A DNA stretch of 64,000 bases, taken from Escherichia coli (lineage in GTDB: Bacteria; Pseudomonadota; Gammaproteobacteria; Enterobacterales; Enterobacteriaceae). This document shows, in pieces, positions 34,801 through 35,759 of this stretch. Numbering within the stretch: position 1 is the first letter of the stretch; each line of letters starts with the position of its first letter. The stretch lies in the NCBI RefSeq assembly GCF_003334785.1, contig NZ_QOWV01000006.1; one strand, 5' to 3'. The position numbers were made by a program, and so were the translations under genes. Under the pieces are notes generated by a model, which saw only the letters and a program-made list of their open reading frames with translations, made no database searches and was not told the DNA's origin.

Positions 34801-35726
34801 TCTGCAACATACAGGTGCAGCCGTGGAATGATCAAACGAAGCGGCTGCGCCTGAGGTTTATAACGGTGCTGCACATTGTCGGCATCGTAATTTAACAACT
34901 CACCAACGTCCGGCACGCCCGCGCCATTATCCCGATTAATCAGTGCAATCAGTGGTGTAGGGCAGGCGTGTTGGACTTGTTTTTGATCTCCTTTGTACCA
35001 GACGCGGGCAATCGGCTGCACCTTCACCGGACGTTTGATTTTTAACTTCGCGTTCTGTGGCAGGGCAGCGATATCCTGATACTCTCGCTCCAGTTTTCTT
35101 TGCCACTCCTCGCGCGTCCACGGTGCGACACTGCGTGGTGATTTCAGGCTTTTTTCCAGCTGTGCCAGGACTTCATCACGATGTAAATTCTTAATGATAT
35201 GTTTATTAGCCCAACCAAAGCGTAAAGTGGCGGGGTCGTGCAGAACGGTGAGCGTGCGGTAAGCATTAAGGGTGATCAGCCCCGGCAAATGACGATGCAC
35301 CCATTCAAAACGTGCCGCGGTGGGGAGTTCTGATTCAACCGTGACGATATGCTCGAACGTGGTCTTGAGTTTATTGATGTGCTGAATATGACTGACCAAC
35401 GCTGCTTGCGAAAGGTTATCGACCTGGTAACACAACACGCCAGGCAGACGGACAGCGGCCTTGCTGCTGCGATTTTCGGACTGTTGTTGAATAAATAAAT
35501 GGCGGAAATGACGCAACGCCAGCGACTGCGCGTCGTTGCCGAGATGTTGTTTTACCTCAATACGATTAAGCGGATTATGCTCATCCTCTTTTTTTACCTC
35601 CGGCAAAGAGAACACGCGGGCAACCAATAGCTTGTGTTGCTCAAGATGAGCGGCAAATATAGCCAGCTCTTGTTCCATCTGGCGAAAGGTAGTGTTGAGT
35701 CGGTCTACGAGATCGTAACGCGCCAT
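34797..35726 (-). CDS. tus: Replication terminus site-binding protein Tus
   Basis: 309 aa from [10 protein letters not shown]; 4-bp convergent overlap with the fumC stop; TerB immediately upstream. Confidence 0.95.
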
Positions 35727-35736
35727 AATATTAACC

Positions 35737-35759
35737 ACTTTAGTTACAACATACTTATT
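35737..35759 (-). other. Replication terminator site TerB
   Basis: Minus-strand read AATAAGTATGTTGTAACTAAAGT contains the Ter core GTATGTTGTAACTAA; starts 11 bp upstream of the tus ATG. Confidence 0.9.

Follow-up and report, generated by a model that had tools for sequence, protein, structure and literature searches.

TerB directly upstream of tus in Escherichia coli: a replication fork barrier that very probably also serves as the operator of tus

TerB, a replication terminator bound by the Tus protein, lies directly before the start codon of the tus gene itself, and this arrangement raises the question of whether the site serves only to stop replication forks or is also an operator through which Tus holds down its own expression. 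In the stretch of Escherichia coli DNA considered here, which is 64,000 nucleotides long and is called the window throughout, the original prediction placed TerB and the tus start codon at 35724-35759 with the 23-bp site 11 bp upstream of the ATG, and proposed both that Tus bound to TerB would occlude its own promoter and that the window is part of the replication fork trap. We conclude with high confidence that TerB is at once a replication barrier and a Tus-bound operator in the core tus promoter, with negative autoregulation. The argument starts from four elements.

35737..35759, minus strand: TerB, the 23-bp Tus-binding replication terminator and very probable tus promoter operator; exact match, with position 1 at 35759 and position 23 at 35737
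35727..35736, minus strand: the 10-nt spacer between TerB and the ATG, GGTTAATATT, read from the sequence
35726-35724, minus strand: the tus start codon ATG; K-12 1684259 corresponds to window 35726, and the MARYD N-terminus is conserved across species
34797..35726, minus strand: the tus coding sequence (DNA replication terminus site-binding protein), 309 aa plus stop, which equals K-12 b1610, 1684259-1685188

A pattern search placed the exact TerB 23-mer, AATAAGTATGTTGTAACTAAAGT, on the minus strand at 35737-35759 with a 23/23 match; it was the sole match in the window even with 3 mismatches allowed, and 0 of 100 dinucleotide-preserving shuffles contained it. The Ter core consensus GNRNGTTGTAACKA, which covers Ter positions 6-19, fits at 35741-35754, within the 23-bp site, with 0 mismatches. 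Its matches in the window number 16, where 12.9 ± 3.8 are expected, and the 15 others all need 2 mismatches. On the minus strand the base at Ter position 6 (window 35754) is G, which puts C6 on the plus strand, and it is C6 of this G·C(6) pair that flips into Tus and forms the lock. The reverse complement of MG1655 1680000-1688000 equals window 31985-39985 with 0 mismatches over 8 kb, and by the resulting coordinate map (K-12 position = 1719985 - window position) TerB occupies NC_000913.3 1684226-1684248. The two checks proposed together with the original prediction, alignment to the Ter consensus and comparison with the published TerB, were both in its favor, as the invariant core is intact and the sequence and position are identical to those of the MG1655 locus. 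The predicted span consists of exactly the start codon, the spacer, and TerB. The spacer from Ter position 23 to the start codon measures ten bases (35727-35736), which puts the end of the site at -11, the predicted distance; Toft et al. word it both as “11 bp upstream” and as “the 10 bp region” (PMC8707476). No other genuine Ter site was found in the 64-kb window by the core consensus search, and an Rfam scan of the whole window (1-64000) at the gathering score returned 0 families. Three further GTTGTAAC octamers, at 12168-12190 (minus strand), 19269-19291 (plus strand), and 60149-60171 (plus strand), fail at positions 18/19 (T18/A19) or at A5/G6, occur at chance frequency, and were rejected as Ter sites.

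The gene directly downstream of TerB encodes the cognate binding protein in the same genome. Its product aligns over the full length, residues 1-309, with crystallized Tus (1ECR, 2EWJ, 2I05, and 2I06; E = 1.5e-208), and PF05472 is the family found in its database relatives. A longer tus ORF starting from a GTG at 35738, and so running into TerB, was rejected because it finds no support in the annotation, the PDB sequence, or the conserved MARYD N-terminus. On the minus strand the gene order is rstA, rstB, and tus, and fumC converges on them from the plus strand.

35802..37103, minus strand: rstB (sensor kinase), upstream of tus and co-oriented with it, from which transcription reaches TerB at its non-permissive face

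The rstB stop codon ends at K-12 1684183. At the other end of tus, the convergent fumC (plus strand) and tus (minus strand) overlap by 4 bp at 34797-34800. In a 3'-end dataset, one RNA end maps within tus but on the opposite strand (K-12 1684895, minus strand; window ~35090, plus strand), which suggests that fumC transcripts extend ~290 nt into tus in antisense.

Whether Tus bound at TerB can interfere with transcription depends on where the tus promoter lies. The rstB-tus intergenic region is 75 bp long and reads, on the minus strand from 5' to 3', TGA-CACTACGCGCACGA-TGGTCA-AGTCACCACGACTGTGC-TATAAA-ATAAGTATGTTGTAACTAAAGT-GGTTAATATT-ATG. Its promoter elements are given below.

35782..35787, minus strand: the putative -35 hexamer TGGTCA, with a 17-bp spacer to the -10 and a 4/6 match
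35759..35767, minus strand: the extended -10 element TGC-TATAAA, the best sigma-70 score in the window, whose last A is Ter position 1
35753 (K-12 1684232), minus strand: the tus transcription start site (TSS) from SMRT-Cappable-seq, equal to Ter position 7 and 5 nt downstream of the -10

The start site comes from Supplementary Data 2 of Yan et al. (2018, PMC6131387), where the operon b1610 is listed with a TSS at 1684232 in forward orientation. The mRNA of tus therefore starts inside the Tus-binding core, and its 27-nt 5' UTR begins inside TerB. In Escherichia, Citrobacter, and Enterobacter the -35-like hexamer is kept in the forms TGGTCA, TAGTCA, or TGGCCT. A generic sigma-70 scan of 35400-36100 reported no promoter in the intergenic region because it demanded T at the sixth position of the -10, while the hexamer here is TATAAA; this null result was accordingly not counted as negative evidence. 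Folding of the rstB-tus intergenic RNA was no better than that of shuffled sequences (z = +1.09), with no intrinsic terminator or leader structure. Downstream of the core, two G residues (35736-35735; Ter +24/+25) follow Ter position 23. Among the 80 species these columns hold G in 78% and 71%, with the neighboring columns near background, and together with Ter positions 20-23 the pair probably forms the tus Shine-Dalgarno sequence, judging from the bases and their conservation. The putative ribosome-binding site of tus would therefore abut or overlap Ter.

A natural promoter-disruption allele is found in E. coli KTa005 (NZ_CP147084.1), where ISEcp1 is inserted exactly at the tus -35 hexamer (L003 ~3487-3700; window ~35786/35787). 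The junction changes from the native ...GATGGTCAAG to ...CTAGGGTCAAG, so that tus and TerB are split from rstB while the -10, TerB, and tus remain intact.

The arrangement was then followed across species. Tus was aligned with nine relatives and one genome per species was scanned, which yielded 80 loci with Tus identities of 69-98% from Escherichia, Citrobacter, Salmonella, Enterobacter, Klebsiella, Raoultella, Kosakonia, Kluyvera, and others of the Enterobacteriaceae. All 80 species carry the GTTGTAAC core in the same orientation and no more than 150 bp upstream of tus. Ter position 23 is 6-10 bp from the tus start in 76 of them; the exceptions are three Kluyvera loci (L069, L080, and L081), at 18 bp, and Intestinirhabdus alba (L021), at 27 bp. 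When the sequences are anchored on Ter, positions 10-17 are fixed by the anchoring itself. Among the unforced positions, 5, 6, 8, 9, 18, and 19 are 100% conserved and 7 and 20 are 91% conserved in the 80 species, whereas the 45 upstream columns and Ter positions 1-4 and 21-23 carry only ~0-0.8 bit. Because the core is nearly invariant and its flanks have diverged, the Ter site is under strong purifying selection amid freely diverging DNA. The identity, position, and orientation of TerB, its overlap with the TSS, and its conservation across species are thus the parts of the dual-role reading that come from the present analysis.

The promoter itself is less uniform than the core. When the 90 bp upstream of tus were scored (L004-L083; 81 sequences in all), two layouts emerged. 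In 48 of the 81 sequences, from Escherichia, Citrobacter, Enterobacter, and relatives, an extended -10 of the form TGnTATAxx ends on Ter position 1 or 2. In ~21/81, from Klebsiella, Raoultella, Kluyvera, Pseudocitrobacter, and relatives, the pattern is TTGCGC/TTTGCA-N17-18-TATAGT and ends 7-10 bp upstream of Ter, which in these genera would sit at ~+1 to +25. Since the best -10 lies further upstream of Ter in these ~21/81, the overlap geometry found in E. coli is not universal. Within E. coli, the tus-TerB locus is present in 5424 of 5426 complete genomes. The tus-rstB junction (window 35300-36200) has no match in 2 of the 5426 genomes, and one of the 5428 matching places is on a plasmid-typed record. 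In six divergent strains, the SNPs inside TerB are confined to two tolerated positions, 7 (T or G) and 2 (A or T), in agreement with the published terB variation of “1-2 SNPs/23 bp”.

Three findings bear directly on the operator role. TerB overlaps both the -10 and +1 of the tus promoter, the extended -10 ending at Ter position 1 and the TSS falling on position 7; the gene so regulated, tus, encodes the very protein that binds TerB; and the Ter-tus arrangement is kept in relatives, 80/80 in the same orientation, while the flanks have diverged. Because of the positions of the -10 and the TSS, bound Tus and RNA polymerase are likely to be mutually exclusive. In the steric geometry that we infer, Tus sitting on Ter positions ~4-20 would cover its own promoter from ~-3, just downstream of the -10, to ~+14 and would take up DNA that RNA polymerase needs for open-complex formation. 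When Tus is abundant, TerB would be occupied and tus would be off, and when Tus is scarce or displaced, the promoter would be free; the expected outcome is negative autoregulation with a very low steady-state level of Tus. Repression in vivo and in vitro, as well as the occupancy of the site by Tus, is taken from the literature. Autoregulation of Tus via TerB in the tus promoter is stated in PMC8707476, PMC8347550, PMC10331603, and PMC12809603, where the repression is credited, by way of secondary citation, to Natarajan et al. (1991) and Roecklein et al. (1991/1992). Beyond tus itself, no target gene of Tus is known (PMC12809603). The proposal that Tus on TerB occludes its own promoter therefore holds up well, given a TSS at Ter position 7, a -10 that abuts Ter, the published statements, and the 80/80 species, and the present analysis found no evidence against the reading of TerB as operator and barrier. 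One limit concerns the exclusiveness of this control: a rare rstA-rstB-tus read-through transcript is listed in the supplement of PMC6131387, and expression of tus is therefore not controlled only at the TerB promoter.

How else might the position of TerB be explained? A chance Ter-like sequence devoid of function would be the simplest alternative, and the three other octamers in the window show that the GTTGTAAC motif does arise by chance, but the 23/23 match, its absence from shuffles, its retention in 80 species, and its identity with the characterized TerB locus leave no room for this explanation. A more substantial alternative is that TerB is only a fork barrier, and that its place beside tus is a relic of a mobile tus-Ter module, for example one of plasmid origin, with no regulatory effect. 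A plasmid origin of tus and Ter has indeed been discussed, with tus always linked to Ter or to an origin, in the work of Galli et al. as cited in PMC8347550 and PMC10331603, and co-inheritance could account for the linkage alone. It does not sit well, however, with a TSS inside the Ter core and a -10 that abuts it, which mean that bound Tus would not be neutral for initiation, or with the start-codon spacing of 6-10 bp kept in 76/80 species while the surrounding intergenic DNA is near background. Autoregulation has, moreover, been reported (PMC8707476, PMC10331603, and PMC12809603), and derepression of tus in delta-tus or TerB-core mutants is described in the literature. We consider a barrier devoid of regulatory effect highly improbable, and the combined role of TerB as barrier and operator is retained as the preferred reading.

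The barrier half of this role requires that TerB face the right way in the terminus region. The window runs opposite to the K-12 map, where it spans ~1.656-1.720 Mb, and it is located past dif and TerC, in the part of the chromosome that the counter-clockwise fork normally copies. TerB ties it to the E. coli terminus region and shows which way it lies with respect to the replichores. Because Ter position 1 points toward higher window coordinates, and hence lower K-12 coordinates, the clockwise fork meets the non-permissive face. TerB accordingly lets the fork of its own replichore through and blocks that of the other. A clockwise fork that has passed TerC would arrive from high window coordinates, meet position 1 and G·C(6) first, and be stopped by Tus-TerB, and a counter-clockwise fork, moving from low to high window coordinates, would meet position 23, the permissive end, and pass. 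The GC skew is mostly positive on the plus strand of the window, which fits the leading strand of a fork that meets Ter from the permissive end. The polarity agrees with that of the published TerC/B/F/G/J cluster. Tus binds TerB very tightly as a monomer, and published experiments found a strong peak of Tus-GFP at TerB by ChIP-seq and paused forks at terB in two-dimensional gels, which rank it among the strongest sites. The placement of the window in the replication fork trap was thus borne out by its K-12 position and by a TerB orientation that blocks clockwise forks, and the literature refines it: TerB is the second barrier, a back-up behind the innermost TerC, in a “type II” trap. From the orientation of Ter it also follows that transcription of tus runs head-on against the fork by which the region is normally replicated, and that this fork has to strip Tus from the operator every time it passes. 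The permissive end of Ter faces tus in 80/80 species.

The same orientation places the non-permissive face of TerB in the path of rstAB transcription, and a published transcript end lies just in front of it.

35767 (K-12 1684218), minus strand: the 3' end of the rstAB transcript, 35 nt past the rstB stop, with Ter position 1 lying 8 nt and G6 12-13 nt further on

This end is listed among the rich-medium SMRT-Cappable-seq data (PMC6131387 Supplementary Data 1, Rich_TTS) as a “novel TTS” at 1684218 for the rstAB transcript with its TSS at 1682135; that TSS has 89 reads, of which 11 stop at the TTS itself, 4 stop in the 50 bp beyond it, and 2 read on past. A terminator scan of the 75-bp intergenic region, combined with folding, revealed neither a hairpin nor a U-tract that would make an intrinsic terminator at this 3' end. 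A distance of 12-13 nt before the edge of a bound protein is that expected for a roadblocked elongation complex, and Tus-Ter is reportedly able to arrest RNA polymerase in a polar manner (Mohanty, Sahoo, and Bastia, 1998 JBC). These features allow the tentative proposal that TerB unites three functions, those of a fork barrier, the operator of tus, and a Tus-dependent roadblock terminator of rstAB.

A stronger version would make the polar roadblock, or insulator, against read-out from rstAB the main transcriptional role of Tus-TerB, with repression of the tus promoter being secondary. The complex would then end the rstAB mRNA, prevent uncontrolled read-through into tus, and keep transcription from stripping Tus off the terminator. 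Such a role would suit the defined 3' end 8 nt before Ter position 1, where 11/89 reads end and only 2 pass, the 75-bp intergenic region without an intrinsic terminator (fold z = +1.09), the spacing of 12-13 nt to the G6 edge that befits a halted elongation complex, and the polar arrest that Tus-Ter is said to impose on RNA polymerase. The transcript end, however, rests on 11 reads from one condition in one dataset, and the supplement of a Term-seq preprint lists no 3' end at 16842xx, so that this independent dataset does not corroborate it. A roadblock is, besides, compatible with promoter occlusion, given that the TSS is within Ter, and is best seen as an added function. As the principal role it seems unlikely to us, and occlusion of the tus promoter by Tus remains the preferred account of regulation at TerB. 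If Tus-TerB does end rstAB transcription in vivo, it would be a natural case of protein-roadblock termination by a replication terminator. The occupancy of TerB by Tus would in that case set the leak of rstAB transcription into tus as well as the shielding of the terminator complex from transcription, and each passage of a permissive fork would, by displacing Tus, briefly open both routes to tus expression.

Compared with known systems, the feature is the textbook TerB of E. coli K-12, whose sequence, position, mechanism, and cross-species conservation are all published and already known. The locus is the same as that upstream of tus (b1610) in MG1655 in sequence, position, orientation, and neighbors, and is read on the opposite strand with no difference. 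TerB and tus form a classic case in which one short site provides for a polar fork barrier and a self-repressing operator. The other Ter sites of E. coli (TerA, C, D, E, and G) and those of plasmids R6K and R1 have in common the core GTTGTAAC[T]A with G6 and likewise act as Tus-bound polar fork barriers, but they are not located in the tus promoter, and TerB alone appears to double as an operator. TerA differs from TerB by a single base (22/23). The closest counterparts are the “vicinal Ter” sites of other Enterobacterales (Salmonella, Edwardsiella Ter1, Dickeya, Proteus, and Yersinia; Toft et al. 2021, PMC8707476), which likewise lie just upstream of tus in the same orientation and retain C6, a layout that the 80 Enterobacteriaceae loci scanned here reproduce. 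The vicinal Ter forms the innermost barrier of a type I trap, whereas in E. coli TerC lies inside TerB, which makes the trap type II, and the placement of the promoter relative to Ter varies between the genera. The same regulatory logic recurs in Bacillus subtilis, where rtp is described as being repressed by its own product, the terminator protein, from a Ter site that lies within its promoter (Ahn et al. 1993, as cited in PMC10331603). RTP is unrelated to Tus, binds as a dimer on A and B half-sites, and arrests forks by another mechanism, and the two self-repressing terminator systems are therefore analogous and not homologous.
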